Positions 227 through 21,137 of a DNA stretch of 21,509 nt are shown here, in pieces. The stretch covers positions 1 through 21,509 of the forward strand of contig JBIOIY010000052.1 of the NCBI GenBank assembly GCA_044450345.1. The letters run 5' to 3'. The stretch's first letter is position 1, and every line of letters begins with the position of its first letter. The notes beneath the pieces were generated by a model. The model was given only the letters and a program-made list of their open reading frames with translations. It made no database searches and was not told where the DNA came from. A program made the position numbers and the translations under genes. Source of the DNA: Thermodesulfovibrionales bacterium. Its GTDB lineage: Bacteria > Nitrospirota > Thermodesulfovibrionia > Thermodesulfovibrionales > UBA6898.

Positions 227-709
227 TCATTCGATCGGGATAGGCTTGCTCATTCTCTCTGCTTCAGGAGATTTCGGTATCTTTATTTCGAGAACGCCGT
301 TCTCAAAATGCGCCTTGGCTTTATCGATGTCCAGGCCCTCAGGCAGTTGGAAACTCCTCGAGAACTTGCCGTATGTGGTTTCATACCTGTAATAGTTTGC
401 CTTCTCTACCTTCTCTTCTTTGCTTTTTTCCCCTGAAATTGTCAGCAAGTCGTGCGTGACATCCAGCTTAATGTCATTCTTTTTTACGCCGGGGATATCG
501 CATTTTACCACAAGCTCATGATCGGTCTCATACATATCGACAGACGGCGAAAACTCTTCAAGTTCCGTTGTTCTTGTTCCCGCCCAAAAAGGCGCCCTGA
601 ACGCCGAAAACGGCCTTCTCCACATCTCTTCGAACCATCTTTCCATATCTTCGATCGGAGCGAGCAGTCTCGTCGGCTCGGATTTTACCAGTTCTTTCGT
701 GCCTTTCAT
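227..709 (-). CDS. hsp20: Hsp20/alpha-crystallin family small heat shock protein
   Basis: Motifs PSVDMYE..DIPGV..LTISGEK..YGKFSRSFQLP..AHFENGVLEIKIPK. Start moved from the TTG at 733 to ATG 709, which follows SD-like AAAGGGGGTG. Confidence 0.95.
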   Translation of the reverse strand: MKGTKELVKSEPTRLLAPIEDMERWFEEMWRRPFSAFRAPFWAGTRTTELEEFSPSVDMYETDHELVVKCDIPGVKKNDIKLDVTHDLLTISGEKSKEEKVEKANYYRYETTYGKFSRSFQLPEGLDIDKAKAHFENGVLEIKIPKSPEAERMSKPIPIE

Positions 710-988
710 CGTTAACACCCCCTTTCCGGTCAATACATACCCTTATCTTCAGCTTATTACGCAAGCAGGAAAATTTCAAAAGCCTGAATTGCATTTTTTG
801 GCTGAAAAAGGGCCAATAAAAAGAGTTTTCAGGGAGAAAAAGTCCCGACTTTCAAGATAGATTATCGGGGAATTGTTTTACTCATTCAGGCTATTCGGGA
901 CACTTCTAGGGCAATATCCCGGCCTCCCGGAGGAGCTCCGCAGGGTGATGAGGAAAGCGGCCGAAAACCAGAAATAACCTGCCGGCGC

Positions 989-1017
989 TTGACTTCCTCA
1001 CCTATTTGCGCTATTTT
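989..1017 (+). promoter_or_regulatory. Sigma70-type promoter (TTGACT-17 nt-TATTTT), probably giving a leaderless mRNA
   Basis: -35 at 989-994, -10 at 1012-1017; GTG start at 1025 lies 7 nt after the -10 and has no SD. Confidence 0.6.
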
Positions 1018-1024
1018 TTAGAAA

Positions 1025-1273
1025 GTGGACACTACTTCAAAAATAGCCGTAATTATCGGCCTTTTTTCTTTGACGGTGATGATTAATCTGTTGTTCGGCC
1101 ATCTCAGAAACCGGACGAAGAAATTTTCGCTTAACTGGTTCCTGTGCATACATTTGCCTATTCCGCTTATCTTCTTTGCAAGGGTCTCTTCTCATCTTGG
1201 TTTCCAATATGTCCCGATCTTTGTTGTCGCTGCGCTCACCGGTCAGATCATCGGCGGAAAGATAGAGTTCTAA
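1025..1273 (+). CDS. Small membrane protein of unknown function (about 3 hydrophobic segments)
   Basis: 82 aa with a FGxLRxxxxKFSxxWFLxIHLPIP pattern typical of a conserved hypothetical family; own promoter; 3 nt before the next gene. Confidence 0.8.
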   Translation: MDTTSKIAVIIGLFSLTVMINLLFGHLRNRTKKFSLNWFLCIHLPIPLIFFARVSSHLGFQYVPIFVVAALTGQIIGGKIEF

Positions 1274-1276
1274 CCA

Positions 1277-2293
1277 ATGCTCTCTGCAATCTTAACGAGA
1301 CCCGGTGAAATAGAGCTCCAGGAAACAGCTATCCCGGAGCCCTGCGAAGGGGAACTCCTCATAGAGGTAAAGTCATCCCTGACCTGCGGGACCGACCTTA
1401 AGGCGTTCATAAGGGGCCATACCTTTATCCCGATGCCGGGGCCTTTCGGACACGAATTTTCCGGCATTGTGGCCGAAAAGGGCAAAGGCGCGGCCAAGTT
1501 CAATGTCGGAGATTCCATTATGGGGGTCCACAGTGCACCATGTCTTAACTGCTCATATTGCAGAAAAGGACTTTTTAACATTTGTGAAAACCTGATGTCG
1601 ACCAAGGCGCTTGGCGCTTTTTCGGAATATCTCCTGCTTCCCAAGCACGTCGTCAAACAAAATGTCTTCAAGAAGCCAAAAGCCATGGGCTTCAGCGAGG
1701 CTGCGTTCCTGGAGCCTCTCGCCTGTGTGGTCCACGGCATGGAGCCGCTAGGGATAAAGAAAAATGATACGGTTTTCATCATCGGAGCGGGGCCCATCGG
1801 CCTCCTTCACCTGATCCTTGCGAAATCAAAAGGGGCGACGGTCCTGATAACCGGTCTGGAGGAAGAAAGGCTGAAGACCGCCAAAAAACTCGGGGCAGAC
1901 TTTGTTTTCGACCCTTCTCAAGCCGTAAAATCGGTGCGCGATTTTACAGAAGGCATCGGTGCGGATTTCATATTTGAATGCACCGGACAGCCCGACATAT
2001 GGGAGGCCGCTGTGGAGTATGTACGAAAGGGAGGGAGTGTCGTCCTCTTCGGCGGGTGCAAGAGCGGAGCCATCGTCAAGTTTAATGCCGAGAGGCTCCA
2101 CTATGACGAGATAACCCTTAAGGGCACCTTTCACTTTACTCCTCATGATGTGGCAACAGCCTTCGGCCTTCTCACTGAGAAGAAGATCAATGTGAGAAAA
2201 TTGATATCCGGGACATATCCGCTCAAGGATATCAGGGAGGTGTTTGCGAAACTTGCCAAGGGCGACGGGATTAAATATGCCCTGACGCCGTAA
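1277..2293 (+). CDS. Zn-dependent medium-chain dehydrogenase/reductase, polyol/sorbitol dehydrogenase-like (paralog 1)
   Basis: Catalytic Zn ligands CGTD, GHE, EP; structural Zn CxxCxxCx7C; Rossmann GAGPIG. Confidence 0.93.
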   Translation: MLSAILTRPGEIELQETAIPEPCEGELLIEVKSSLTCGTDLKAFIRGHTFIPMPGPFGHEFSGIVAEKGKGAAKFNVGDSIMGVHSAPCLNCSYCRKGLFNICENLMSTKALGAFSEYLLLPKHVVKQNVFKKPKAMGFSEAAFLEPLACVVHGMEPLGIKKNDTVFIIGAGPIGLLHLILAKSKGATVLITGLEEERLKTAKKLGADFVFDPSQAVKSVRDFTEGIGADFIFECTGQPDIWEAAVEYVRKGGSVVLFGGCKSGAIVKFNAERLHYDEITLKGTFHFTPHDVATAFGLLTEKKINVRKLISGTYPLKDIREVFAKLAKGDGIKYALTP

Positions 2294-2308
2294 ATAGCGC
2301 TCTGAGCC

Positions 2309-3208
2309 CTAACCTTTACCTTTTGCTCTGATTATCTCCTGCATCCGACGGGCGTTCCTTATGGCCGATGCGCCATGACAATTGTTGAACATCGCAAAGA
2401 CCACACTTATCTTTTCGTTTGCCGCAAGGAGAGGGGGAATAAATTCCTTAAGTTCTTCTTCGGAATAAAGGTAGTCGTAACGGAGTGAGGTCTCTAGTCC
2501 CTTTTTGAGCCAATTCTCCTTGTTTCTGCCATGGAACCTGAAATAAGCGGTATCGGTAGAAGCCATAGGAAAAAATGGAACGGTTGCAAGATTTCCGTAC
2601 TGCGGCTCGTCTGCCGGCACGTAAGTTATCCCGTGTCCCCTTAGGAAATCCATGACTGTCTCTCTGTTTCCTGGGGAAAGCCAACTGCCATGTCTGAATT
2701 CGACTGCCGCACGCAGGCCATTTATGAGAGACACGCGGCCGACTATATGGTCAAGGTTTCCTTCTGTGTAATGAAGCCAGGGGGGGAACTGGAACACGAC
2801 GACGCCGAGTTTCCCGGCCCCTGTGAGAGGCGCCAGGGACCCCGTAAACCTTCGGCCGATAATCTGCAGCAGTTCCGGGTCCTTGATATATACGTATTTC
2901 TTGTCCCTGTCCGCGGAAGGGAGGGCACTGATGACCTCTGCCGGAAGTGTCTTTGGATCAACTCCGTGGCCTGTGAGCGCCCCGAAGGCCTTAACATGGA
3001 ATATGAAATTCCCCGGAGTTCTTTCTGCCCATACCATTGCATTTTTTACATCAGGGATCGCATAGTAGCTGGAATCGACCTCGACCGTATCGAATGATGC
3101 TGCGTAATACCTAAGCCTGTCTTCTGCGGATTTTACCTCTTTCGGATAAAATTCTCCGCTCTTGATGAGTGTCTTCTCTGTCCATGAACAGGTGCCGATA
3201 TGGATCAT
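2309..3208 (-). CDS. DUF72 (YecE/YunF-like) protein
   Basis: Motifs IGTCSW, TVEVDSSYY, FHVKA, FQFPPW, VEFRH, YFRFHGRN, YDYLY, FNN. Confidence 0.92.
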   Translation of the reverse strand: MIHIGTCSWTEKTLIKSGEFYPKEVKSAEDRLRYYAASFDTVEVDSSYYAIPDVKNAMVWAERTPGNFIFHVKAFGALTGHGVDPKTLPAEVISALPSADRDKKYVYIKDPELLQIIGRRFTGSLAPLTGAGKLGVVVFQFPPWLHYTEGNLDHIVGRVSLINGLRAAVEFRHGSWLSPGNRETVMDFLRGHGITYVPADEPQYGNLATVPFFPMASTDTAYFRFHGRNKENWLKKGLETSLRYDYLYSEEELKEFIPPLLAANEKISVVFAMFNNCHGASAIRNARRMQEIIRAKGKG

Positions 3209-3223
3209 GTTGTAATAAGGTGG

Positions 3224-3286
3224 TCACCGAAGCAAGCCGGTGGGCTTTCGGGTAGCAGCGTCAGTGTCAGTCGTTATCGGCGCCAT
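3224..3286 (-). CDS. Putative 20-aa leader ORF (MAPITTDTDAATRKPTGLLR*) upstream of, and in frame with, DUF72
   Basis: SD GAGGA (3296-3292) 5 nt before ATG 3286; extended -10 just upstream; TGA at 3226-3224. Confidence 0.3.
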   Translation of the reverse strand: MAPITTDTDAATRKPTGLLR

Positions 3287-3302
3287 GGCTGTCCTCAGGG
3301 CT

Positions 3303-3311
3303 ATTTTATCA
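3303..3311 (-). promoter_or_regulatory. Extended -10 promoter TGaTAAAAT for the DUF72 transcript
   Basis: Reverse complement of 3303-3311 reads TGATAAAAT. Confidence 0.5.
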
Positions 3312-3332
3312 TAATCGGCAAAAGATCCCGTT

Positions 3333-3367
3333 ACCCCGTTAGAAGACCTTCGACCTTCTAACGGGGT
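3333..3367. repeat. Palindromic REP-like element ACCCCGTTAGAAG-N9-CTTCTAACGGGGT
   Basis: Perfect 13-bp inverted repeat (3333-3345 / 3355-3367) with a 9-nt loop, located between divergently oriented genes. Confidence 0.75.
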
Positions 3368-3398
3368 TTACTTTTCGCAGAGATTAAAGTTGGGCGCT

Positions 3399-3539
3399 AT
3401 GGCTGCCCCTATCAGACCCATTGGTCCTATTGATGTATGTGGGAAAATAAGTGAGATAAAATGGGTTCCAGAGGAAAAGGGCAAGGGGATTCCAGGGATG
3501 TCAGGTTCCGCAGGGCATGACCGAACAAGGCTCGTGTAG
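3399..3539 (+). pseudogene. Probable gene remnant or small ORF (MAAPIRPIGPIDVCGKISEIKWVPEEKGKGIPGMSGSAGHDRTRLV*)
   Basis: 46-codon ORF with protein-like composition; the frame is open from 3315 through the palindrome; no SD. Confidence 0.35.
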
Positions 3540-3629
3540 ATGAGAAGCAAGAGTTCTTCCTGGACTCCGGGAATGGCGGCTTCTTGAAATAGGTAGAGAA
3601 GCCCTGGAAGCACTACATGAGGACGGAAA

Positions 3630-3638
3630 TGCTAAAAT
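3630..3638 (+). promoter_or_regulatory. Extended -10 promoter TGcTAAAAT for the dehydrogenase 2-cupin unit
   Basis: TG 3630-3631, TAAAAT 3633-3638; ATG 11 nt downstream; no SD. Confidence 0.55.
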
Positions 3639-3649
3639 AAAACCTATAA

Positions 3650-4675
3650 ATGAAGGTCGCGAGATTATACAGTTTTAATGATATCCGCATTGAGGATATC
3701 CCTGTCCCGGAGGTCGGGCCGGGCGACGCCCTGATAAAGACAAAGGCCTGCGGGATTTGTTCGGGCGACGTGATGCCATGGTATATAGAAAAAAAGGCGC
3801 CGCTCGTCCTCGGCCATGAACCGGCGGGAGAGGTCGTGGAAGTCGGCAAAGAGGTCCGCTCCTTTAAGAGAGGCGACAGGGTCTTTACCCACCACCACGC
3901 TCCCTGCTTCACCTGCAGGTTCTGCAGACGCGGGGACTACGTGCAATGCGACACGTGGAAAAATTCGCGCATCATTCCCGGCGGGGTCTCGGAATACATC
4001 CTCGTTCCCCCCGTGAATCTTGAAAACGATACGATACTTATTCCTGAGAATATGGGTTTTGAGGACGCGGCCCTGATTGAACCTGTTGCCTGCGTCCTGA
4101 AGGGCCTGAAAAGGGCTCGGATCAGGCGCGGCGATACCGTACTGGTCATCGGACTGGGCGTAATGGGCATGGTCAATATAATGGCGGCGAAGCACTTTGG
4201 CGCCGGCAGGGTCATAGGGGCCGACATGGTGAAATTCAGGCTCGATAAAGCCGGTGAATTCGGGGCCGATGAGGTCATTAATGTTTCGACTATCGAACTT
4301 TGTGCAGGACTCAGAGACGTTACAAAAGGGGAGATGGCCGAACTTGTAGTTGTTGGGCCGAACAGCGCCGCTGCCATGGTGCAGGGGTTGAGGTGCGTCC
4401 GGCCGGGCGGCCAAGTGCTCTTTTTTACGCCGGCGAAGCCCGGCGAGATGATCTCGATAGATCCCAACCTTCTTTATTTTAATGATATCAATATCATAAC
4501 CAGTTATTCCTGCGGGCCGTCAGATACCGCCGACGCCTGTGAACTGATAGGCAAGGGGATTGTGTCGGCGAAAAAGGTAGTGACACATAGATTTCCGGTA
4601 GAGAAGACGGAGGAGGCGTTCAGGCTTACTTCTGCGCCGGGTGACTCACTGAAGGCATTGATCGTATTCGATTAA
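3650..4675 (+). CDS. Zn-dependent medium-chain dehydrogenase/reductase, polyol/sorbitol dehydrogenase-like (paralog 2)
   Basis: CSGD, GHE, CFTCRFCx7C, EP, GLGVMG; Asp after beta-2 (IGAD) suggests NAD(H). Confidence 0.93.
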   Translation: MKVARLYSFNDIRIEDIPVPEVGPGDALIKTKACGICSGDVMPWYIEKKAPLVLGHEPAGEVVEVGKEVRSFKRGDRVFTHHHAPCFTCRFCRRGDYVQCDTWKNSRIIPGGVSEYILVPPVNLENDTILIPENMGFEDAALIEPVACVLKGLKRARIRRGDTVLVIGLGVMGMVNIMAAKHFGAGRVIGADMVKFRLDKAGEFGADEVINVSTIELCAGLRDVTKGEMAELVVVGPNSAAAMVQGLRCVRPGGQVLFFTPAKPGEMISIDPNLLYFNDINIITSYSCGPSDTADACELIGKGIVSAKKVVTHRFPVEKTEEAFRLTSAPGDSLKALIVFD

Positions 4676-4708
4676 GCAGACCCATGGTCTGAGGAGATAA
4701 AAAACGTA

Positions 4709-5176
4709 ATGAAAAAAAATCCGGCAAGGCAGGCGTCGTTTTGTGAAGTAGTCAGCACAGGAAAGGGAGTGCGGAAAAAGACGAACAGTTCCGCTTTTTA
4801 CAAGCATAAGGGCGACATGAACTGGCGCGGCGTTGCGGACGAACCCTACAAGACCGTGACCGGAGGATGGTCAAATATCATAAGACGGGTGTTGATCGGC
4901 GCCCGCGGGGAATCAGCGAAGTTCCACGTCCGGTATTTCGAAATTGCACCTGGCGGCGCCAGCAGCCTTGAGAGACATAGGCATGAGCATGTGGTCATAT
5001 GCGTGAAAGGTGAAGGCATTGTCAGGACCGGGAAGGCAAGGAGGAAGATGGGATTTATGGATACCCTCTATATTTCTCCCGACGCCATCCATCAGCTTTC
5101 GAACCCCTTTAAGGTCCCCTTCGGTTTTTTTTGTATAGTCAATGCCAGAAGGGACAAACCAGAGGTCCTTACTTAG
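4709..5176 (+). CDS. Cupin_2 domain protein, resembling R. rubrum 1-methylthio-xylulose-5-phosphate methylsulfurylase
   Basis: WRGV..PYK, RYFEIAPGGASSLERHRHEH, P..IHQ, GFFCIVNARRDKP. The cupin fold is secure; the subfamily match is from recalled sequence. Confidence 0.85.
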   Translation: MKKNPARQASFCEVVSTGKGVRKKTNSSAFYKHKGDMNWRGVADEPYKTVTGGWSNIIRRVLIGARGESAKFHVRYFEIAPGGASSLERHRHEHVVICVKGEGIVRTGKARRKMGFMDTLYISPDAIHQLSNPFKVPFGFFCIVNARRDKPEVLT

Positions 5177-5198
5177 GCCTTACATGCCCGCAACTCCC

Positions 5199-5228
5199 TT
5201 GTTTTATCTCAAAAAGATATTCTATTAT
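5199..5228 (+). promoter_or_regulatory. Putative sigma70 promoter (TTGTTT-18 nt-TATTAT) for resB-ccsA
   Basis: Hexamers at 5199-5204 and 5223-5228; SD GAGGGGAG before ATG 5258. Confidence 0.35.
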
Positions 5229-5257
5229 ATCGAACTAATGTTGAGGGGAGCCGTTTA

Positions 5258-6712
5258 ATGGAAAAGAAAAAAAACAAGTCGATAATAGACAAGATAATAG
5301 ATCCCGTCTGGGACCTTTTTGCGTCGGTCAAGTCCGCCGTCGTCATTTTTTCTCTCATCGCGCTGACATCGATGGTAGGGACGGTCCTCGAACAGAACGC
5401 CGAGCCTGAGAAGAATATCAAGATACTTGTAAAGATGTTCGGTGTGGAGCATGAGACTGCACACAGCATATACGGAGTCTTTGACAGCCTCGGGTTCATG
5501 AATATGTACCACTCCTGGTGGTTTGTTACATTCCTGCTCCTCTTTGCCGCAAACCTGATCATCTGCTCACTCGACAGGCTCCCCAGGATAATTAAGCTGG
5601 TCCGGGAAAATATCAGGCCGCTTTCGCAGGAGCATCTCGAAAAGATGTCCATAAGAAGAAGTCTTCAGATGAAAGGTAAGGCATCGGCTATCAAGGGTGA
5701 TGTGGCCTCCTCGATCGTTAAGATTGGATTCAAGCCGTCCGAATCCCCTGCAGAAAATGGGTTCCAGTTCTGTGCAGAAAAGGGAAATTTCACGAGACTG
5801 GGCGTATATATCACTCATCTCAGCATTCTGATAATCCTCGCGGGGGCTATTATAGGCCTGAAATTCGGGTTTAACGCGTCCCTCAACCTCCCGGAGGGGC
5901 GGACTTCTTCGGTTGCATACAAGGACAGGGGAACCGAAGTGCCGCTCGGGTTCGAACTCAGATGTGACAACTTCGAGGTGGAATATTACGGTGACAGCGA
6001 CATGCCTAAGTCATATAAGAGCTGGCTTACAGTGCTTAAGGACGGCAGGGAGGTTCTGAAAAAAGTCATATCGGTAAACGATCCGCTTTCCTATGGGGGC
6101 ATTACCCTTTACCAGTCCAGCTACGGCTCCTTGCAGGAGAATATGAACAACGGCATACTTGTGCTCCGGGTGGTTTCCCGTGACGGAAAGAGCAGCCAGA
6201 TCAATACACGCATAGGGGGGACATTTACGATGCCGGGCTCCGCAGGAGAAGGGCGTATAGCGAATTTTAGCCCTGCCCTCTCTTTTGATCAGTCAGGCCG
6301 GGCCTTTACCTATGACGCGGGTTTAAAAAACCCGGCGATATTTGTAGAATTGCCTGACGTTGGGGGTAAACCCTATTCCGGGTGGATATTAAAAAGATAT
6401 CCGCAGACCTGGCGTCTGCCCGATGGAAGCAGCGTGGAGTTCCTTGACTATTGGGGGGTAGAATATACCGGGTTACAGGTGAGAAGAGACCCCGGCGTCT
6501 TGATCGTGTATCTTGGATGCATTATCATGGCGGCAGGTCTTTATATAACGTTCTTTATGAGCCATAAGAGGCTCTGGGTGAACGTGGCTGAGGAAAAGGG
6601 CGCTGCAAAAATTTTGATCGGCGCCTCCGCTAACAGAAACAGGGCGGCCTTTGAACGGGACATAGAAAAGCTGACTGGCCTTCTCGGTGAAGGCCACAAA
6701 GGGGGAAGATAG
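5258..6712 (+). CDS. resB: Cytochrome c biogenesis protein ResB (Ccs1 family, system II)
   Basis: N-terminal TM helices with GTVLEQ, MYHSWWF, NLIICSLDR; YITH heme ligand; large periplasmic domain with VNDPL and YQSSY; C-terminal TGLQVRRDPG plus TM. Confidence 0.93.
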   Translation: MEKKKNKSIIDKIIDPVWDLFASVKSAVVIFSLIALTSMVGTVLEQNAEPEKNIKILVKMFGVEHETAHSIYGVFDSLGFMNMYHSWWFVTFLLLFAANLIICSLDRLPRIIKLVRENIRPLSQEHLEKMSIRRSLQMKGKASAIKGDVASSIVKIGFKPSESPAENGFQFCAEKGNFTRLGVYITHLSILIILAGAIIGLKFGFNASLNLPEGRTSSVAYKDRGTEVPLGFELRCDNFEVEYYGDSDMPKSYKSWLTVLKDGREVLKKVISVNDPLSYGGITLYQSSYGSLQENMNNGILVLRVVSRDGKSSQINTRIGGTFTMPGSAGEGRIANFSPALSFDQSGRAFTYDAGLKNPAIFVELPDVGGKPYSGWILKRYPQTWRLPDGSSVEFLDYWGVEYTGLQVRRDPGVLIVYLGCIIMAAGLYITFFMSHKRLWVNVAEEKGAAKILIGASANRNRAAFERDIEKLTGLLGEGHKGGR

Positions 6713-8283: not shown

Positions 8284-9246
8284 ATGAAAGCCCTGGTGAC
8301 AGGAGCTGCAGGCTTTATCGGAAGCTATCTTGTGGAAACCTTGAAAGAACGAGGCTATGAGGTGACATGTCTCGCGAGAAGGTCTTCCAACCTCAAATGG
8401 ATAGAACATCTCGGTCTGAAATATATTATTTGCGATCTTTCCGATGTCGAATCACGTGCCGACGAAATCAGCGGGTTTGATTACATATTTCATCTGGCCG
8501 GCGTGACCAAGGGGTTATGCGAGCGCGACTTTTTTCATGCCAACGCGGAATGCACGGAGAAATTAGTTCGTGTAGCGGCCGAAAGAGGAGGCGGTCTGAA
8601 AAGGTTCATCTACCTCAGCAGCCTTGCCGCCGTAGGGCCGGGCGACGGCAGTGAGGCCGTGAGAGAGGATTCGCCCCCGCTGCCTGTTTCCTTTTACGGC
8701 AGGAGCAAGCTCGAAGGGGAGAAGGCGGTGCTTCAGTATAGAAACAGGTGCCCCGTGACGATCATAAGACCTCCGGCGGTGTACGGACCGAGGGACACCG
8801 ATTTTTTTGTAATGTTCAAGATGATAAAAAAAGGCGTCTTCCCGTTCTGGGGGACATGCCTCTATTCCTTGCTCTATGTTGAAGATCTCGTTCGGGGCAT
8901 CATACTTGCGGCGGAGAAGAAAGAGGCGGCGGGTGAGATATTTTTTTTATCGGACGATATGGTTTATACTAACGAGGATATTGCGGCCGAGATATCGGAG
9001 GCAATCGGCGTAAAAGCGATGAAAATCCGTTTGCCCCGACCGCTCTTGCCTTTATTAGCTTTTGTGGGTCAAAAAATTGACAAAAAAGGTATAATTAACA
9101 GAGACCGGATAAATGATTTCCGCTATTCCAACTGGACATGCGATTCAAGCAAGGCAAGAAATGAGCTGGGTTTTCGTTCAAGAATAATGTTAAGGGAAGG
9201 GATAAAATGGACGGCAGACTGGTACAGAATTCACCGATGGCTATAG
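8284..9246 (+). CDS. NAD-dependent epimerase/dehydratase family extended SDR; candidate ceramide or 3-keto-sphinganine reductase (CerR-like)
   Basis: [32 protein letters not shown]. Function inferred from the overlap with spt. Confidence 0.85.
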
Positions 9247-10433
9247 AGAGGTCGGCAGACCTTTTCGACAAGTGCTACAGGTTCACCAAGGCGAAGGAAT
9301 TGATCAACGCCGGGATGTATCCCTATTTCAGAGTGATCCAGAGCGCACAAGACCCCGAGGTTGTGATTGACGGTAAAACGATGATCATGGTCGGCTCCAA
9401 TAATTATCTGGGTCTCACGAACCACCCCAAGGTCAAAGAGGCTGCACTGGATGCCATAAAGAAATACGGTTCGGGTTGTGCGGGATCGAGGTTCCTGAAC
9501 GGCACACTGGATATCCATGTACGCCTCGAAGAGAAGCTCGCGCGTTTTATCAGAAAAGAAGCCGCACTCGTGTTTTCGACGGGCTTTCAGGTAAATCTCG
9601 GTGTCATATCGTCCCTTGCAGGGAAGGACGATGTCATTATTATCGACAAGATGGACCACGCGAGCATTATAGACGGATGCCGGCTCTCCTACGCTGAAGT
9701 CAGGAAGTTCAGGCATAACGATATGACCGATCTCGAAAGGATCCTGGTCGAGAACAAGGACCGGAGAAAGCTTATAGTAGTCGACGGAGTTTTTAGTATG
9801 GAAGGCGATCTTATCAACCTGCCCGAGGTCGTCGCTCTTGCCAAAAAATATGGCGCGAGGGTCATGGTCGACGACGCCCATGGCATTGGTGTGCTGGGCA
9901 AGACGGGCCGCGGCACGGCCGAACACTTCGGGCTTGAAAAGGACGTCGATCTTATCATGGGTACGTACAGCAAATCTCTTGCCTCTATCGGGGGATTTAT
10001 CTCGGGAGATGAAAGAGTGGTCCACTACATCAAACATTTCGCAAGGGCACTGATCTTCAGCGCAAGCCCTCCCCCTGCATCGATAGCCGCGGTCAGCGCC
10101 GCACTCGATATTATCGAAGGCGAGCCGCAGCGAATTGAAAAGTTATGGGAAAATACATGGAAAGTCCACAAGGGCTTCAAGTCGCTCGGTTTCGAGATAG
10201 GGCCCACTGAAACACCTATCATTCCCATTCTTGTCGGCGAAGACCTAAAGGCATTTACCATGGCGATGATGCTCCAGCAGGAGGGTGTTTTCGCCAACGT
10301 GGCGGTGAGTCCGGCCGTGGCCAGCGGCAAGGCGCTTATAAGGACCAGTTATATGGCCACGCATACTGATGAACATATTGAGAAGGTGCTGAGCGCCTTC
10401 GAAAAAGTAGGCAAGGCCCTGGGCATTATCTGA
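9237..10433 (+). CDS. spt: Serine palmitoyltransferase (PLP-dependent alpha-oxoamine synthase family)
   Basis: [20 protein letters not shown] (SPT-type; differs from KBL SVRFICGT and BioF ASRLxxG), DHAS, DDAH, PLP-lysine motif GTYSKS, FSAS. ATG 9237 preferred over 9207. Confidence 0.85.
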
Positions 10434-11533
10434 TGATCGAAGTCATTGAGGCCCGGGAGTCTCTCGATGACTTTATCAAATTCCCCCTGTCCTTATACTC
10501 GGGTGATCCCCTGTTTGTACCGCAGCTTACAAGGGAGATGCGCGTGCATTTCTCGCCGGAAAATCCTTTTTTCGATCACGCCAGCGCTAAATTTTTTATC
10601 GCGGTGAAAGAAGGCCGCCCGGCAGGCAGGATAATATCTTTTGTGAACAGGAGGCACAACGAGTTCCATCACGAGAAAACGGGCTTCTTCGGCTTTTTTG
10701 AGTCGGTGAACGACGGGTCCGTCTCCCGTGCCCTCTTCGACAAGGCGGCCGCCCACCTGAAAGAGGAAGGGATGGAAGTGGTGAGGGGCCCGATGAACTT
10801 TTCAACGAATGATGAATGCGGTTTTCTGATAAATGGGTTTGCAGAACCTCCCTTTATCATGATGCCCTATAATCCGCCTTATTATAACGTCCTCGCCGAG
10901 GATTACGGCTTCAGGAAGGTCAAGGACCTCTACGCCTATCTCTATACGCTTCGGGACAGACTTCCCGAAAAGATCTTAAGGGTTGCGGCTATCGTGGAAA
11001 AGAGGGGGATATCCGTGAGGCCTATCAATATGAAGAACTTTAGATCGGACATGATGATATTCAAAGACGTGTATCACTCGGCGTGGGAAAAGAACTGGGG
11101 TTTTGTGCCTATGACGGATGAGGAACTTGATTATTCAGCGGCGAGGCTGAAGCAGATTATTATCCCGAGGATGACCCTTATTGCGGAAGAGGAAGGCAAA
11201 CCAGTAGGATTCATGGGATTGGTCCCGGATTTTAACTATGTCCTTAAACATATGGGCGGAAAGATGAACCCGGTGAGCATCGTCAAGGCGCTGTATTATT
11301 CCAAGAAGATCAAAGACTTGAGAGTGATGCTCCTGGGCACCAAAAAGGAGTTCCGGAACAAAGGCATTGAAGCGCTTCTGTTCAGGGAAGGGTTTGGTCC
11401 GATCAAGGAAGGAAATTATAAAAGAGTGGAGTTTTCCTGGATACTGGAAGATAATATACCGGTCCAGCGGACTATCGAAATGTTCGGGGCCGAGTTGTAC
11501 AAGAAATACAGGGTCTACGAGAAACAGTTGTAA
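10433..11533 (+). CDS. GNAT-fold N-acyltransferase; candidate bacterial ceramide synthase (bCerS-like)
   Basis: FIKFP..LY..DP.FVP, NPFFDH, GRI, GFFGFFE, RGPMNFSTNDECG, MPYNPPYY, WEKNWGFVP, SWILEDN; TGATG coupling to spt. Confidence 0.8.
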   Translation: MIEVIEARESLDDFIKFPLSLYSGDPLFVPQLTREMRVHFSPENPFFDHASAKFFIAVKEGRPAGRIISFVNRRHNEFHHEKTGFFGFFESVNDGSVSRALFDKAAAHLKEEGMEVVRGPMNFSTNDECGFLINGFAEPPFIMMPYNPPYYNVLAEDYGFRKVKDLYAYLYTLRDRLPEKILRVAAIVEKRGISVRPINMKNFRSDMMIFKDVYHSAWEKNWGFVPMTDEELDYSAARLKQIIIPRMTLIAEEEGKPVGFMGLVPDFNYVLKHMGGKMNPVSIVKALYYSKKIKDLRVMLLGTKKEFRNKGIEALLFREGFGPIKEGNYKRVEFSWILEDNIPVQRTIEMFGAELYKKYRVYEKQL

Positions 11534-11566
11534 TGTATGCAGACTGTTTGGAATGGCGGGATACAC

Positions 11567-12805
11567 TCATTGATAACGACCCAGGACCAGAACAGCATTC
11601 ACCCCTCCGAACCCGAACGAGTTTGAGAGTGCGATGCCGGCGGCCGCCTCTCTTTTCTCGGCTGCCACGTTCAGTGCGCAATCGTCATCCCTTCCGCTAA
11701 AATTTATCGTGGGTGGGATGGTCCCCTCCTTCAGACTCATGACTGCAAATGCGGCCTCGAGTGCCCCCGAAGCCGCGAGCATATGGCCTGTCATTGATTT
11801 TACCGCACTCACTGTGACCGCAGGGCATCTCTTCCCGAGCAGGACGGCGATAGCTTCCGATTCGATCCTGTCCCCGAGCGGGGTGGAGGTGCCGTGAGCA
11901 CTGATATAATCGATGTCCGCCGGAGAGATCCCCGCCTCTTCTATCGCACCCTTCATCGCCCGAATCAACCCGTCCCCGTTGGGCATTGTCTGATGAAAGG
12001 CGTCGGCCGTATTGCCGTAGCCTAAGACCTCTCCATAAATAGATGCCCCCCTCTCCAAAGCGCTCCTTTCCTCTTCCAGGACCACGACGCAGGCGCCCTC
12101 GGAAAGCACAAAACCGTCTCTTGCCCTGTCGAACGGCCTGCTCGCCGAGGGATCGGCCACCCGGGACAACGCACCTGCGGCTCCATACCCTTCGAGGCAT
12201 AATCGGCAGAGGGGGGCCTCCGATCCCCCCGCAATTACCGGCCCCGTGAAGCCGTTTTTTATCAGTCTGAATGCCTCTCCGATCGCATTTGCGCCTGAAG
12301 CGCAGGCATTTGAAATACCGAGACAGTATCCTCCGGCCCCCAGCTTTTGGGCAATGTATGACGGCGCCATGCTGATAGTAGTTGAGGGCATCATATACGC
12401 TGAGAAGCGTATCTTGTGCGTAAGGTTCCGGAGGAGGGAACGCTCAAGGGTGCCGATTCCCCCTCTGCTTGAGCCGATAATTACGCCGCCGGAAGAAAGG
12501 GGCTGGTAATGATTCTCCGCTGAGGTACTGTGCAATGAAAAACCCGCATCGTCAACCGCCATGAGCGCTGCGGAGACTGCGTATTGTACGAACAAATCGA
12601 CCCGCCGGATCTCTTTTCTTCCCAGGGAGAGGGAGGCATCGAAGTCTTTCAATTCTCCTGCCACCTTCCAGGGAAGATGCGACACGTCAAACCTGGTGAT
12701 GGGCCCAAGTCCGCTCTCGCCGGCCTTTGCGGCCGCCCAGGATTCCCTGAAGCTGTTTCCCAGCGGTGTGACCGCACCTATCCCCGTTATGACTACACGT
12801 TTCAT
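11567..12805 (-). CDS. fabF: Beta-ketoacyl-ACP synthase II (FabF family), orphan copy
   Basis: RVVITGIG; catalytic Cys (NACASG), His (HGTST), His (KSMTGH); SRPFD..RDGFV; NSFGFGG. ATG 12805 preferred over TTG 12811. Confidence 0.9.
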   Translation of the reverse strand: MKRVVITGIGAVTPLGNSFRESWAAAKAGESGLGPITRFDVSHLPWKVAGELKDFDASLSLGRKEIRRVDLFVQYAVSAALMAVDDAGFSLHSTSAENHYQPLSSGGVIIGSSRGGIGTLERSLLRNLTHKIRFSAYMMPSTTISMAPSYIAQKLGAGGYCLGISNACASGANAIGEAFRLIKNGFTGPVIAGGSEAPLCRLCLEGYGAAGALSRVADPSASRPFDRARDGFVLSEGACVVVLEEERSALERGASIYGEVLGYGNTADAFHQTMPNGDGLIRAMKGAIEEAGISPADIDYISAHGTSTPLGDRIESEAIAVLLGKRCPAVTVSAVKSMTGHMLAASGALEAAFAVMSLKEGTIPPTINFSGRDDDCALNVAAEKREAAAGIALSNSFGFGGVNAVLVLGRYQ

Positions 12806-12813
12806 CGTCAACT

Positions 12814-15384: not shown

Positions 15385-16821
15385 TTGGCTGAGGGAGTGA
15401 GAGTTCGTTTTGCGCCGAGCCCGACGGGATTTCTTCACATAGGCGGGGCGAGGACCGCCCTGTTCAACTGGCTTTATGCGAGGCACCATAACGGCACATT
15501 TATTTTGAGGATCGAAGATACGGACCGGACCCGGTCAACGGAAGAATACATCGATGCGATCATCGAGGGCATGAAATGGGTCGGTCTCGACTGGGACGAG
15601 GGGCCATTCAGGCAGACCGACAGGTTCGATGTGTACCGCAGCTATATCGCGAGGCTGGTTGAAGAAGGAAAGGCATATCACTGTTACTGTTCTCCCGAAG
15701 AACTTGAGGCCAGACGCCAGGAGGCGCTTGCGCAGGGTAAATCTCCCAAATATGACGGCAGATGCAGGAACCTTAGGGAACCTGTCCCCGGCAGGGCCCC
15801 GGCGGTCCGCTTCAGGATGCCCCAGGAAGGGCATACGGTTGTGGACGATATGATACGCGGGAAGGTCGAGTTCGAGAATTCCCAGTTAGATGACCTGATC
15901 ATCCTCCGCTCTGACGAGACGCCCACCTATAACTTCACCGTCGTGGTCGATGATGTGGATATGGGGATCACCCACGTCATCAGGGGCGACGACCACTTAA
16001 ATAACACGCCCAAGCAGATGCAACTCTACAGCGCCTTCGGATACCCCATCCCCAAGTTCGCGCACCTGCCGATGATACTCGGGGCGGACAAGACGAGGCT
16101 CTCGAAGAGACACGGCGCAACGTCGGTGATGGCCTATTATGAGATGGGGTATCTCCCCGATTCCCTCATCAATTACCTTGTGCGGCTCGGCTGGTCCTAT
16201 GGGGACCAGGAGGTGTTTACCAGGGAGGAGTTGATAAAGTATTTCACCTTTGAGAACGTCGGTTCGTCGGCTGCAGTATTCAACCCTGAAAAGCTCCTCT
16301 GGCTGAACCAGCAGTATATCATCGGATCGACTCCCGAGAGGCTTTCTGAACTTGTAGTCCCTTTCCTTCTGAAGGAGAAAATAATAGATGAGGGACAGAC
16401 GCTCGAAATGGGCTGGCTTGTCAGGGCGGTCAAGACCCTTCAGGAGAGGGCGAAGACCTTGGTGGAACTCGCAAGGTCCCTGCGCTATTATATAGTTGAA
16501 TACGTCGATTACGATGAAAAGGCGAAAAACAAGTTTCTGAACGAGAAATGCCTTCCGCTTCTTAAAGACCTGAAGAGGGAACTCTTGTCCCTCGACGACT
16601 TTTCCCATGAAGGGCTTGAAACGGTGTTCCGGTCGATCATCGAAGAACACGGCGTCAAACTCGGCAACCTGGCTCAGCCGGTACGTGTGGCGATGACCGG
16701 GGGTACGGAAAGTCCCGGCATTTTTGAGGTCCTTGAGGTCATCGGAAAGGAAAAGACGATAAGGAGACTTGAGAAGGCGATAGAGACGATAGAAGGAAAA
16801 AATCCCGGAAAGGAATCTTAG
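15385..16821 (+). CDS. gltX: Glutamate--tRNA ligase
   Basis: [55 protein letters not shown] start with SD AAGGAGGT. Confidence 0.98.
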
Positions 16822-16823
16822 AC

Positions 16824-18542
16824 ATGGCCGAGAGCGACTCTTTAAGACCCTCCGATTTCATACGAGAGATCGTGGAAAACGACATGAAGGCGAAAAAATA
16901 CAACAGCAGGGTCCATACGCGTTTTCCGCCGGAGCCGAACGGTTACCTGCACATCGGACATGCCAAGTCGATCTGCCTCAATTTCGGGGTCGCCTCCGAA
17001 TTCGGCGGCAAATGCAATCTGCGCTTTGACGACACGAACCCCGAGAAGGAAGAGCAGGAGTATGTCGACTCCATCATAGACTCGGTCAGATGGCTCGGCT
17101 TTGACTTCGGCCCTGGGCCGCTCTATGCCAGCGACTACTTCGACTTCATGTACCGGGCTGCCGAACACCTCATCACTGCGGGACATGCGTATGTGGACAG
17201 CCAGTCCGCTGACGAGATGCGCGAGAACCGGGGGACGCTGACGTCACCGGGGAAGGACTCTCCCTTTCGCGGACGTTCCGTGGAGGAGAACCTGCGTCTG
17301 TTCCGGGAGATGCGCGACGGCAGGCATCCCGACGGCATGATGGTGCTACGCTCAAAAATAGACATGGCCTCACCCAACATCAACATGCGTGACCCGGCGA
17401 TTTATCGCATCAAACGTGCGGACCACCATCGCACAGGCGGCACGTGGTGCATCTACCCAATGTATACGTACGCCCATCCGATCGAGGACGCGCTCGAACG
17501 CATCACCCACTCGATCTGCACCCTTGAGTTCGAAGACCAGAGGCCATTCTATGATTGGCTGCTTGAGCGGCTTGCCGAGGGTGGACTGCTGGAAAGACCG
17601 TTGCCCCGACAGATCGAGTTTGCCCGCCTGAACCTGAGTCATACCGTGCTCAGCAAAAGGAAGCTCATCCAGCTGGTACAGGAAGGGCACGTCTCGGGAT
17701 GGGACGATCCGCGGATGCCTACCCTCGCAGGCATCAGGAGACGCGGGTATACGCCGGAGGCGATCCGAAATTTCTGCGACCGAATAGGCGTCGCGAAGCG
17801 GGACAGCTTAGTCGACATCGCCCTGCTGGAATATTGTATACGCGAAGACCTCAATAAACGCGCCCCGCGCGCCATGGCGGTGCTTCGGCCGCTTAAGGTG
17901 GTCATAGACAATTATCCGGAAGATCTTCCGGCCGAGGAACTCGATGCGGTAAATAACCCTGAGGACGCCTCGATGGGGACGAGGAAGGTACCTTTTTCGC
18001 GCATCATCTATATTGAGAAGGACGATTTCCGTGAAAACCCTCCGAAGGAATTTTTCCGATTAGCGCCGGGCCGCGAGGTGCGGCTGAGGTACGCGTATTA
18101 TATTACCTGCACAGGGGTCGTCAAGGATGAGAAGACCGGAGAAGTGAGCGAGTTGCACTGCACCTATGACCCAAAGACAAAAGGAGGCGACTCTCCTGAC
18201 GGAAGGAAGGTAAAGGCGACGCTGCACTGGGTCTCGGCCCGGCATGCGGTGCCGGCGGAAGTGCGCCTTTATGCCCATCTGCTGATGAAGGCCGACCCCG
18301 GAGATGTCGGAGAGGGGCAGGACTTCAAGTCTCTCCTCAACCCGAACTCTCTTGAAACATTGCCGGTCTGTTTTGTTGAACCGACCCTTGCGGGGGCCGC
18401 TCCGGGCAGCCGATATCAGTTTGAAAGGCAGGGATATTTTTGTGTTGATCCCGACTCTTCAAAGGACAAACTCGTTTTCAACCGGATAGTGACGTTAAAG
18501 GACACGTGGGCGAAGATCGAAAAGGCGCAGAAAAAGCGGTGA
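16824..18542 (+). CDS. glnS: Glutamine--tRNA ligase
   Basis: [68 protein letters not shown]; no C-terminal YqeY domain. Confidence 0.98.
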
Positions 18543-19650: not shown

Positions 19651-20385
19651 ATGAATAAGGGCAAGATCAAGCTTCTTCTGGGTTCCGTCAAAAAAGGGAC
19701 GGTCTCTATAGAAGATGCGCTCGGCCGGTTGAAACACCTGCCCTATGAGGACATACAGTTTGCGAAGGTCGACCATCACCGGCATCTCAGGCAAGGAGTC
19801 CCGGAAGTCGTTTTCGCATCGGGAAAGACCACCGAACAGGTAGTTACCATCTCCCGCGCGATGCATAAGAGAAGCGGCAGCTTTCTGATCACGAAGGCCA
19901 CGAAAGAGATATTCGACGCGCTGGGAATAAAGGGCGCGGTCTTTCATGAGTCGTCAGGGGTGATCGCTGTCGGAAGGACGAAGAAAAAGAGCGGAAATGT
20001 TTTGGTGCTGACGGCCGGCACGTCCGACATGCCCGTTGCCGAAGAGGCGGCGGTTACCGCATCATTTCTCGGCAGTAAAGTGAGTACGGTATATGACGTC
20101 GGTGTCGCCGGATTGCACAGGCTGATGGACACCTCCGTCCTCATGCACAAGGCCCGCATAATCGTCGTCGTCGCCGGCATGGAGGGTGCTCTTCCCTCTG
20201 TGGTAGGCGGCATGACGGACAAGCCGATCGTCGCGGTCCCCACTTCTACCGGCTACGGTACAAGCCTGGGAGGTCTTACCGCCCTTTTTGCGATGCTCAA
20301 CTCCTGCGTCCCCGGCATAGCGGTCATGAATATCGACAACGGCTTCGGCGCCGGCTGCCTCGCGCATAAGATCAATACACGGTAA
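19651..20385 (+). CDS. larB: Nickel-pincer cofactor biosynthesis protein LarB (AIR carboxylase/CpmA-like)
   Basis: DHHRHLRQGVPEVVF..GKT, AGTSDMPVAEEA, DVGVAGLHRL, AGMEGALPSVVGG, VPTSTGYG, NIDNGFGA. Confidence 0.93.
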   Translation: MNKGKIKLLLGSVKKGTVSIEDALGRLKHLPYEDIQFAKVDHHRHLRQGVPEVVFASGKTTEQVVTISRAMHKRSGSFLITKATKEIFDALGIKGAVFHESSGVIAVGRTKKKSGNVLVLTAGTSDMPVAEEAAVTASFLGSKVSTVYDVGVAGLHRLMDTSVLMHKARIIVVVAGMEGALPSVVGGMTDKPIVAVPTSTGYGTSLGGLTALFAMLNSCVPGIAVMNIDNGFGAGCLAHKINTR

Positions 20386-20503: not shown

Positions 20504-20758
20504 ATGACGACTGCAGCAGTCAAGATTACTAGTAAGGGGCAGGTGACGATCCCTAAGGAGATTCGGGAAAAGCTCAAAGCCAATTCCGTTTATTTCGAGG
20601 TGGAGGATGATACTGTCATGGTGAGGCCGGTGCGGGATGCTGCCGGTTCACTCAGCGCATACGCCGGCAAAGGTAAGCCGGGCGTGTCCATGAAGCAGAT
20701 GAAAGAGAGGGCGTGGGAGGTGGCTGTCCGTGAAAAGACCGGCAAGAAGTCTTCCTGA
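20504..20758 (+). CDS. AbrB/MazE/SpoVT-family DNA-binding antitoxin (VapB-like)
   Basis: VKITSKGQVTIPKEIREKL swapped-hairpin signature; overlaps the downstream PIN gene. Confidence 0.92.
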   Translation: MTTAAVKITSKGQVTIPKEIREKLKANSVYFEVEDDTVMVRPVRDAAGSLSAYAGKGKPGVSMKQMKERAWEVAVREKTGKKSS

Positions 20759-21137
20759 CACCAACACCATTATCCGGTATCTCGTCGCAGATGATCCCAT
20801 CCTGCATGCAAAGGCAAAGGAATTCTTTGATAAGGTAAAAAATGGCGGCGTCAAGGCCGTTTTCCTCGAAAGCGTGATTGCCGAATGTATCTATGTACTG
20901 ACGAAGATATATAAGGTTCCTCGGGACCGGGCCGCGAGCAGTCTCATCGATATCTTGCACTATAAGGGAATTGCAAATGATGATCGGCTGGAGCTTATCA
21001 GTGCCTTGTCCATGTTCTCGGAGCAAGGTCTTGATATTGTTGACTGTATCTTGTGCGCCAAGGTCGTGACCGCCGGTGACCACCTTTTTACCTTCGATAT
21101 AGACCTGAACAAACTCGCGAAGCGAATAAGCCCATGA
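20730..21137 (+). CDS. vapC: PIN-domain ribonuclease toxin (VapC family)
   Basis: DTNTIIRYL, VIAECIYVL, DIVDCIL, TFD: the conserved PIN acidic residues are present; GTG start overlaps the antitoxin. Confidence 0.92.
   Translation: MKRPARSLPDTNTIIRYLVADDPILHAKAKEFFDKVKNGGVKAVFLESVIAECIYVLTKIYKVPRDRAASSLIDILHYKGIANDDRLELISALSMFSEQGLDIVDCILCAKVVTAGDHLFTFDIDLNKLAKRISP

Follow-up and report, generated by a model that had tools for sequence, protein, structure and literature searches.

The window analysed here is one whole contig (C52; 21,509 nucleotides) of a Thermodesulfovibrionales genome (G000; 3.19 Mb in 86 contigs, 91% complete and 1.9% contaminated), and its nearest named database records are Candidatus Sulfobium and Thermodesulfovibrionales metagenome-assembled genomes (MAGs). 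It encodes two Zn-dependent medium-chain dehydrogenases/reductases (MDRs), MDR1 and MDR2, and a cupin of the family of Rru_A2000, the Rhodospirillum rubrum methylsulfurylase of 1-methylthio-D-xylulose-5-phosphate (Table 1). On balance, we consider it probable that these three genes form a module replacing the RubisCO-like protein (RLP) step in the shunt that leads from 5'-methylthioadenosine (MTA) to isoprenoids (MTA-isoprenoid shunt); the dehydrogenase pair would shift the carbonyl from C2 to C4, and the cupin would give DXP (1-deoxy-D-xylulose 5-phosphate). Across the class Thermodesulfovibrionia, the three genes cluster, co-occur, exclude RLP, and are present in genomes in which the DXP synthase Dxs was not found. 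Genomes, contigs, loci, families, and genera are cited below by our own handles (G, C, L, f, and g with a number).

The cupin was matched by phmmer to the PDB entries 3ibm (3.4e-22), 3jzv, which is Rru_A2000 (2.4e-19, residues 30-153), and 3kgz (6e-16), with the next-best cupin, TM1459, at just 3e-07; its fold was recognized by PF07883 at 1.2e-09. The resemblance to Rru_A2000, which an earlier note on this DNA had pointed out, was thus borne out, and all the motifs quoted there (WRGV..PYK, RYFEIAPGGASSLERHRHEH, HQ, and GFFCIVNARRDKP) were found in the translation. Twelve residues (Y47, R59, R75, Y76, F77, E78, H90, H92, H94, H128, C142, and R148) were invariant in 44 diverse members of the cupin family. 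The same invariant residues are found in the window cupin, where H90/H92/H94 and H128, the GFxC cysteine, and the conserved arginines align with 3jzv. This fully kept residue set, including three invariant arginines, suggests that the substrate is phosphorylated. The cupin is a single copy in the window genome, and its full length of 155 aa is conserved in relatives.

In a representative library, 619 relatives of the cupin were retrieved at E<=1e-3. Among 39 long relatives that were scanned, 26 were RuBisCO_large-cupin (RLP) fusions and none carried an ADH domain, which ties the cupin family overall to RLPs. Because it holds such fusions, small cupins are labelled 'ribulose-bisphosphate carboxylase large chain' in several sources. 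In quick IQ-TREE trees of 150 and 165 cupin domains, which did not include Rru_A2000 itself, the window cupin fell in a clade (SH-aLRT 96-97) of MDR-associated cupins and 6-7 sequences of unknown context. Together with seven cupins of f24, a family of another class, this clade formed a 41-row group with a support of 92 and no RLP-fused member, and the RLP fusions were spread over several other clades.

The Lys-rich N-terminal tail of the window cupin (residues 1-37, window 4709-4820) carries a cysteine, Cys12, that was present in 65 of 71 MDR-type cupins, the other six having gaps. The seven f24 cupins (L127-L133) have an extra cysteine instead in a C-x-C-G-I-D-R or F-C-G-I-D-R loop before R59, and both forms were missing from the RLP-adjacent G260 cupin (L134) and the three f26 cupins examined. 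Where glutathione synthetase was not found, the extra cysteine may serve the organism as an internal thiol.

MDR1 and MDR2 fit the polyol/threonine branch of the Zn-dependent medium-chain dehydrogenases by their domains, catalytic Cys/His/Glu, and structural Cys4. The catalytic ligands are C37/H59/E60 (plus E146) in MDR1 and C37/H56/E57 (plus E144) in MDR2, the structural ones are C89/C92/C95/C103 and C86/C89/C92/C100, respectively, and these residues were conserved in 53 MDR1 and 83 MDR2 orthologues. The two share 30% identity; the earlier description of a pair of divergent Zn-MDR paralogs with C/H/E ligands agrees with the open reading frames, domains, and ligands. None of the named MDR equivalogs (L-threonine 3-, galactitol-1-phosphate 5-, scyllo-inosose 3-, and L-idonate 5-dehydrogenase) was reached by either protein, as the best NCBIfam scores were 164 bits for MDR1 and 165 bits for MDR2 against cut-offs of 380-550.

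The residue at the NAD-discriminating position differs between the two. In MDR2, D192 was Asp in 83/83 orthologues; in MDR1, position 193 was Gly in 42, Asp in 8, Ala in 2, and Ser in 1 of the 53, and R198 was Arg in 49/53. From general knowledge of MDR cofactor sites, Asp is read as a preference for NAD and Gly/Arg as one for NADP. MDR2 would then be of the NAD type and MDR1 mostly of the NADP type (Gly plus Arg five residues on), a difference that would give a redox relay between them a direction.

Co-occurrence of the three genes, exclusion of RLP, and loss of Dxs

Each query was searched in 201 genomes of the class, most of them MAGs, with orthologue cut-offs that we chose from bimodal E-values (cupin E<=1e-15, MDR2 E<=1e-100, and MDR1 E<=1e-95). 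Weak PF00016 matches (E 1e-19 to 1e-32) were taken as RLP-type, and the eight strong matches among these genomes are true RuBisCO. MDR1 orthologues were found in 106/201 genomes and MDR2 orthologues in 107/201. The cupin occurred with no RLP-type match in 111 genomes, of which 105 had MDR2, 101 had MDR1, 99 had both, and four had neither. It occurred with an RLP in 17 genomes (11 fusions in f7 and six adjacent pairs), and all 17 had neither dehydrogenase. The remaining 73 genomes had no cupin; MDR2 was found in two of these, MDR1 in five, and RLP in one. The association of both MDRs with the cupin in RLP-less genomes, which the earlier note had put forward as a check, is therefore strong in this sample.

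The four cupin genomes with neither MDR were G084, G091, G121, and G133; two of them reach 78-80% completeness, G121 is split into 490 contigs, and G084 was matched by a partial 95-aa cupin frame only. All three genes were missing together from G152 (g24) and G175 (g36), both 100% complete, and their congeners have all three. G007 and G051 kept the trio though its genes are unlinked. In a sample drawn from the whole phylum, the cupin was found in 49/181 genomes, and in f24 it was accompanied by the MDRs (cupin 12/12; MDR2 12/12, 55-63% identity; MDR1 10/12, 47-52%). The f24 genes are dispersed, with the MDR genes on other contigs or >100 kb away and no MDR within ~9 kb in seven loci. No weak RLP-type PF00016 match was found in f24, where strong RuBisCO-type matches alone occurred (7/12 genomes).

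The order of the genes is also conserved. In a first set of 20 loci around cupins from 13 families, the fetched stretches contained MDR2 in 18/20 and MDR1 in 11/20, and orf82, a small gene described below, lay directly upstream of MDR1 in 11/11. The contiguous one-strand order orf82-MDR1-MDR2-cupin was found in L025, L028, L029, and L033, which represent four families, L033 coming from another order of the class. A second set comprised 80 species-representative loci, all from Nitrospirota, and had some genomes in common with the first. Of its loci with >=1.4 kb upstream of the cupin, 61/65 had MDR2 there on the same strand (45 adjacent and 16 further away) and four lacked it. Where >=3 kb was available (61 loci), MDR1 was found in 43 and a direct tandem MDR1-MDR2-cupin in 20. 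orf82 accompanied MDR1 in 37/43 of those loci, and the two remain together even in loci where MDR1 is apart from MDR2 and the cupin. In the window, the MDR2 stop codon (TAA, 4673-4675) and the cupin ATG are 33 nt apart, the distance that had been reported.

The window genome encodes MtnP in two copies (317 and 295 bits; cut-off 275), one of them beside apt, and MtnA in one (424 bits; cut-off 279), as well as Dxs (848 bits) and spermidine synthase (SpeE). PF00016 had no match in this 91% complete genome, and a control search did recover the RLP of Bacillus subtilis; an RLP adjacent or fused to the cupin was likewise not found. The presence of mtnP and mtnA in a genome with no RLP, another check proposed in the earlier note, was thus found. 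MtnA was detected in 197/201 class genomes and, being nearly universal, does not discriminate. In G000 (C13:14076-16170; L013:8076-10170), G007, G022, and G145 (L117, L118, and L120), mtnA is translationally coupled to a polyprenyl-diphosphate synthase gene whose start it overlaps; the RLP-fusion genome G040 lacks this overlap. By gene order, the coupling connects MTA salvage with isoprenoid synthesis. The second MtnP paralogue (G000:C58:13061-13846; L015:9061-9846, minus strand) also scored above the cut-off of the model for S-methyl-5'-thioinosine phosphorylase (290 bits against 223) and adjoins a sigma-54 response regulator.

Dxs was found at E<=1e-120 in 178/201 class genomes and not found in 23. 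The listing of the Dxs-less genomes names 20 of the 23: all 14 of f6, including four assemblies of 1-3 contigs, both of g23, and G052, G002, G014, and G075. Among these 20, 18 have the cupin; 17 of them carry MDR2 and 16 carry MDR1 too, and one (G002) is RLP-type. The trio carriers are f6, both g23 genomes, and G052, with the exception of G164 (f6), which had no MDR1 match at E<=1e-95. The two listed genomes that lack the cupin are 83% complete.

A relaxed Dxs search in G022, G038, G145, G018, and G064 gave nothing above the cut-off; the best matches in the four f6 genomes were the halves of a split transketolase, and G064 gave only a weak partial match (E 7.8e-14). Dxr was above its cut-off in 5/5 of these genomes. 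The split transketolase of f6 was considered as a hidden Dxs and judged unlikely to be one, since in G022 it scored 364+321 bits as transketolase versus 224 bits as Dxs (cut-off 466). In the same genome, genes for a type III RuBisCO (566 bits), phosphoribulokinase, the two-gene transketolase, and glyceraldehyde-3-phosphate dehydrogenase stand in a row (L125, C1:605500-611000). f24 keeps Dxs (5/5).

A published profile agrees with this pattern. Table S2 of PMC10663253 gives Thermodesulfovibrio yellowstonii DSM 11347, which belongs to the class Thermodesulfovibrionia, as negative for RLP, Dxs, and the mevalonate pathway and positive for the cupin, DxrI, and IspD/E/F/DF/G/H, and this profile matches that of the Dxs-less module carriers. 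In section 3.1 of the same paper, four Dxs-less species are said to have the methylsulfurylase only and no RLP, and the matter is left open there; by Table S2, T. yellowstonii is among these four.

Proposed route and rival explanations

Our inferences on the substrates, the regiochemistry, the part played by each cofactor, the sequence of redox steps, and the formation of DXP are as follows. MtnP and MtnA, encoded elsewhere in the genome, would convert MTA into 5-methylthio-D-ribulose-1-phosphate and 5'-deoxyadenosine into 5-deoxy-D-ribulose-1-phosphate. The C4 hydroxyl would be oxidised, most likely by MDR2 with NAD+, and the C2 ketone would be reduced to the arabino configuration, most likely by MDR1 with NADPH. 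Renumbered, the product would be 1-methylthio-D-xylulose-5-phosphate, or DXP directly from the 5-deoxy substrate, and the cupin would remove the methylthio group with a thiol, leaving DXP. The argument of the earlier note that an unchanged C3 gives the D-xylulose configuration proved correct when reworked on paper. Either order of the redox steps is conceivable; reduction first, the order put forward in the earlier note, would pass through a pentitol phosphate, and oxidation first through a 2,4-diketone. We lean slightly to oxidation first because of the kinship of MDR2 with another dehydrogenase of the genome, MDR3.

MDR3 (contig C1) is the closest paralogue of MDR2 in the genome (42% identity; MDR1 and MDR3 share 34%) and is directly adjacent to an LsrF-like '3-hydroxy-5-phosphonooxypentane-2,4-dione thiolase' gene (423 bits; cut-off 297), whose product belongs to the DhnA class I aldolase family (G000:C1:67753-69645; L116:5751-7646, minus strand). 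The LsrF-like gene was found in 127/201 class genomes and adjoins MDR3 in every case with a listed position for both. Its distribution over the families largely complements that of the class II aldolase (PF00596), the enzyme type of the dihydroxyacetone phosphate (DHAP) shunt (Ald2/MtnB type). The LsrF-like gene and the class II aldolase were found, respectively, in 10/15 and 5/15 genomes of f1, 8/8 and 0/8 of f2, 10/36 and 26/36 of f3, 6/6 and 0/6 of f4, 0/14 and 12/14 of f6, and 2/7 and 5/7 of f9.

By our own chemical reasoning, oxidation of 5-deoxyribulose-1-phosphate at C4 yields exactly the LsrF substrate, 3-hydroxy-5-phosphonooxypentane-2,4-dione (P-HPD), and for this reason we take MDR3 to be a C4 dehydrogenase of MtnA products. 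MDR2 would then be a methylthio-adapted relative of MDR3. The MDR3-LsrF pair is a candidate dehydrogenase-thiolase route from 5-deoxyribulose-1-phosphate to DHAP and acetyl-CoA; among the matches listed in a full-text literature search, no paper linked LsrF with 5-deoxyribulose. In f7, an LsrF-like gene directly follows the RLP-cupin fusion in L121 (G040:C1:2222000-2238000), G054:C19, and G030:C15, and in G054 a 700-aa class II aldolase/short-chain dehydrogenase (SDR) fusion comes next. Other f7 and f14 genomes have the LsrF-like gene beside a class II aldolase/SDR fusion.

These findings also form the basis of an oxidative catabolic variant that we regard as unlikely, in which MDR2 would oxidise C4 of methylthioribulose-1-phosphate, the cupin would remove the methylthio group from the resulting alpha-methylthio diketone to give P-HPD, and an LsrF-like thiolase would cleave this to DHAP and acetyl-CoA; DXP would not be the product, and MDR1 would do something else. 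The kinship of MDR2 with a dehydrogenase that stands directly beside an LsrF-like gene, the recurrence of that pairing across the class, the f7 fusions that adjoin an LsrF-like gene in G040, G030, and G054, and the identity of C4-oxidised 5-deoxyribulose-1-phosphate with P-HPD all speak for it. However, the trio is kept in f6 and in the 26/36 f3 genomes where the LsrF-like gene was not found, and MDR1, which the variant leaves aside, tracks the cupin as tightly as MDR2 does. The variant also leaves unexplained that Dxs has been lost almost only in genomes with a cupin system. Another reading, for which the chances seem slimmer still, is that the cupin acts on an unphosphorylated alpha-methylthio carbonyl such as 2-(methylthio)acetaldehyde from an aldolase-type cleavage, with the MDRs as alcohol or aldehyde dehydrogenases of a route like the DHAP shunt. 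According to PMC5893883, an alcohol dehydrogenase is required in that shunt to act on 2-(methylthio)acetaldehyde, and both MDRs do belong to the alcohol dehydrogenase superfamily and the LsrF-like protein to an aldolase family. Against this stand the Rru_A2000 residue set with its three arginines, which points to a phosphorylated substrate, the retention of two deeply divergent MDRs where one reductase would do, and the strict exclusion between MDRs and RLP, which, like the Dxs-less carriers, would find no explanation.

That the three genes have no common function and are neighbours through inherited gene order, the MDRs being ordinary enzymes of the polyol/threonine type and the cupin having an unrelated or redundant role, appears very improbable. 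The best NCBIfam matches of the MDRs, L-threonine 3-dehydrogenase and scyllo-inosose dehydrogenase, are under cut-off and would suit such enzymes, and a downstream block (ResB-CcsB-response regulator-SDR-serine palmitoyltransferase) is conserved in the same loci. Yet the trio co-occurs where its genes are dispersed (f24, G007, and G051), and is missing as a whole from the two complete genomes G152 and G175, and both MDRs are absent from all 17 genomes whose cupin is RLP-linked.

Several observations weigh against the replacement of the RLP step by the MDR1-MDR2-cupin module. Clustering alone is weak evidence because the downstream ResB-CcsB block is equally syntenic, and in the window the three genes are not one operon, since the divergent DUF72 gene splits MDR1 from MDR2; a DUF72 gene stands between the MDRs in only 5/100 other loci (L016, truncated, L037, L038, L045, and L061). 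The substrate class of the MDRs comes from context only, as all the named equivalog scores are well under cut-off, and the conserved orf82 fits nowhere in the scheme. The cupins of f6 and f14 fall outside the main MDR-type clade of a weakly resolved tree. As no glutathione synthetase was found in the window genome, its organism probably lacks the thiol used in R. rubrum. Most carriers, like the window genome itself, keep Dxs, so that the module is not essential for DXP in general. A class II aldolase, which the earlier note had expected to be absent, was indeed not found in the window genome, but this did not extend to the clade; the gene occurs in 84/201 class genomes, module carriers included, and many carriers, with f6 and f3 prominent among them at the counts given above, have a competing outlet for the same substrates. 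Finally, most of the evidence was gathered in a single phylum, and genomes that are related do not count as independent samples.

Layout of the window and neighbouring genes

The features at and around the module are collected in Table 1; two of these genes, orf82 and the DUF72 gene, had gone unmentioned in the earlier note.

Table 1. Positions of the module genes and adjacent features in the window
Feature	Position	Strand	Description
orf82	1025..1273	+	82 aa, conserved predicted membrane protein; ends 3 nt before the MDR1 start
MDR1, Zn-dependent medium-chain dehydrogenase	1277..2293	+	ADH_N + ADH_zinc_N; proposed reductase of the carbonyl transposition
DUF72 gene	2309-3208	-	Opposite strand, between MDR1 and MDR2
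MDR2, Zn-dependent medium-chain dehydrogenase	3650..4675	+	ADH_N + ADH_zinc_N; proposed C4 dehydrogenase
GAGGAG ribosome-binding site of the cupin gene	4691..4696	+	12 nt before the ATG, read from the sequence
Cupin, Rru_A2000 (methylsulfurylase of 1-methylthio-D-xylulose-5-phosphate) family	4709..5176	+	155 aa; PF07883, 3jzv homology

orf82 matched no Pfam or NCBIfam family (Pfam on 18 orthologues, E<=1). It has hydrophobic stretches resembling three membrane helices together with invariant polar residues, and 18 columns were invariant in the 18 orthologues, including R28, S35, W38, H43, R53, Q74, and a GG pair. In a protein atlas, unnamed clusters of look-alikes (86 aa) were found in Nitrospirota and Thermodesulfobacteriota, most commonly in the latter. 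A prediction of an orf82-MDR1 complex scored 0.00, which speaks neither for nor against binding.

The DUF72 gene was rejected as a part of the module on the locus count given above. Since it was found between the MDRs solely in the closest relatives, it looks like a recent insertion. Genes inserted between MDR2 and the cupin in some other loci (PIN toxins, CheV, a histone-deacetylase-like gene, an M48 peptidase, and a methyl-accepting chemotaxis protein) were likewise rejected, since they differ between loci. The gap of 441 nt before MDR2 includes, at window positions 3333-3370, a perfect inverted repeat of 12 bp (CCCCGTTAGAAG ... CTTCTAACGGGG) with a T-rich run after it, which looks like a terminator. 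An Rfam scan of window positions 600-5400 at E<=1 gave a chance snoRNA-like match only, with no riboswitch upstream of either gene pair. The counts from a promoter and terminator scan were no higher than in shuffled sequence and were left unused.

Further downstream, at window positions 8284-12811, lies a block that many relatives also conserve and that resembles a sphingolipid-type lipid gene cluster in Nitrospirota. It encodes an HpnA-like SDR, an enzyme similar to serine palmitoyltransferase (591 bits, slightly below the cut-off of 640), a GNAT-domain protein of 366 aa, and a divergent FabF-like ketoacyl synthase. The genes for glutamyl-tRNA synthetase and glutaminyl-tRNA synthetase lie side by side at 15385-18542, followed further on by a LarB homologue (19651-20385) and a VapC-type PIN gene (20730-21137).

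Relation to known systems and meaning for DXP supply

The MTA-isoprenoid shunt is described in PMC5893883, PMC6302742, and PMC4334135. As known from R. rubrum and Rhodopseudomonas palustris, it comprises MtnP, MtnA, a DeepYkr RLP (Rru_A1998/RPA2169), and the cupin (Rru_A2000/RPA2170). The genome studied here has MtnP, MtnA, and a homologous cupin, and the proposed end product, DXP plus a methanethiol equivalent, is the same. In contrast, no RLP was found in the window genome or in the 111 cupin-carrying relatives, where two Zn-MDRs occur instead, no glutathione synthetase was found here, and the cupin has its extra Cys-bearing tail. The proposed module works like the MTA-isoprenoid shunt yet lacks the RLP that defines it. 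The RLP-cupin fusions (about 520-615 aa) contain a cupin of the same family and occur in all 11 genomes of f7, a family of the same order, whereas the window cupin stands alone and MDR1/MDR2 orthologues were found in 0/11 of these fusion genomes.

The MDR3-LsrF cassette resembles the module in that MDR3 is the closest paralogue of MDR2 and both are reasoned to act on MtnA products at C4; it differs in that MDR3 with the thiolase would feed DHAP and acetyl-CoA, and MDR2 goes with the cupin and MDR1. For the use of Zn-MDRs on pentitol and pentulose phosphates, the D-arabitol-phosphate dehydrogenase (APDH) of Enterococcus avium, an MDR-family enzyme, is reportedly a precedent. In fungal pentose catabolism, pairs of NADPH-dependent reductases and NAD-dependent dehydrogenases move a carbonyl by reduction and oxidation. 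Compared by description only, these systems share with the module the proposed carbonyl shift on a pentulose skeleton by reduction plus oxidation with differing cofactor preferences, but the substrates proposed here have a 5-methylthio or 5-deoxy group and a 1-phosphate. In a search of full-text literature, with subscription journals outside its scope and in part among the matches listed, no paper was found that pairs dehydrogenases with an Rru_A2000-type cupin or gives an RLP-free route.

The family assignment of the cupin corrects the RuBisCO large-chain labels that small cupins bear in databases. If the proposed function is true, the dehydrogenase pair would be a second, non-homologous solution, next to the RLP, for the key isomerisation of the MTA-isoprenoid shunt; acting on 5-deoxyribulose-1-phosphate, the same pair would link radical S-adenosylmethionine (SAM) waste directly to DXP. 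It would also give a testable answer to the question left open in section 3.1 of PMC10663253 on Dxs-less species with the cupin and no RLP. A bolder suggestion, which we make only tentatively, is that in the Dxs-less members (f6, g23, and, by Table S2 of PMC10663253, T. yellowstonii) MDR1-MDR2-cupin might be the sole source of DXP, so that all isoprenoids and whatever else is made from DXP would be fed from the ribose of the SAM by-products MTA and 5'-deoxyadenosine, with the extra cupin cysteine replacing glutathione. The module offers candidate enzymes for a Dxs-independent supply of DXP.

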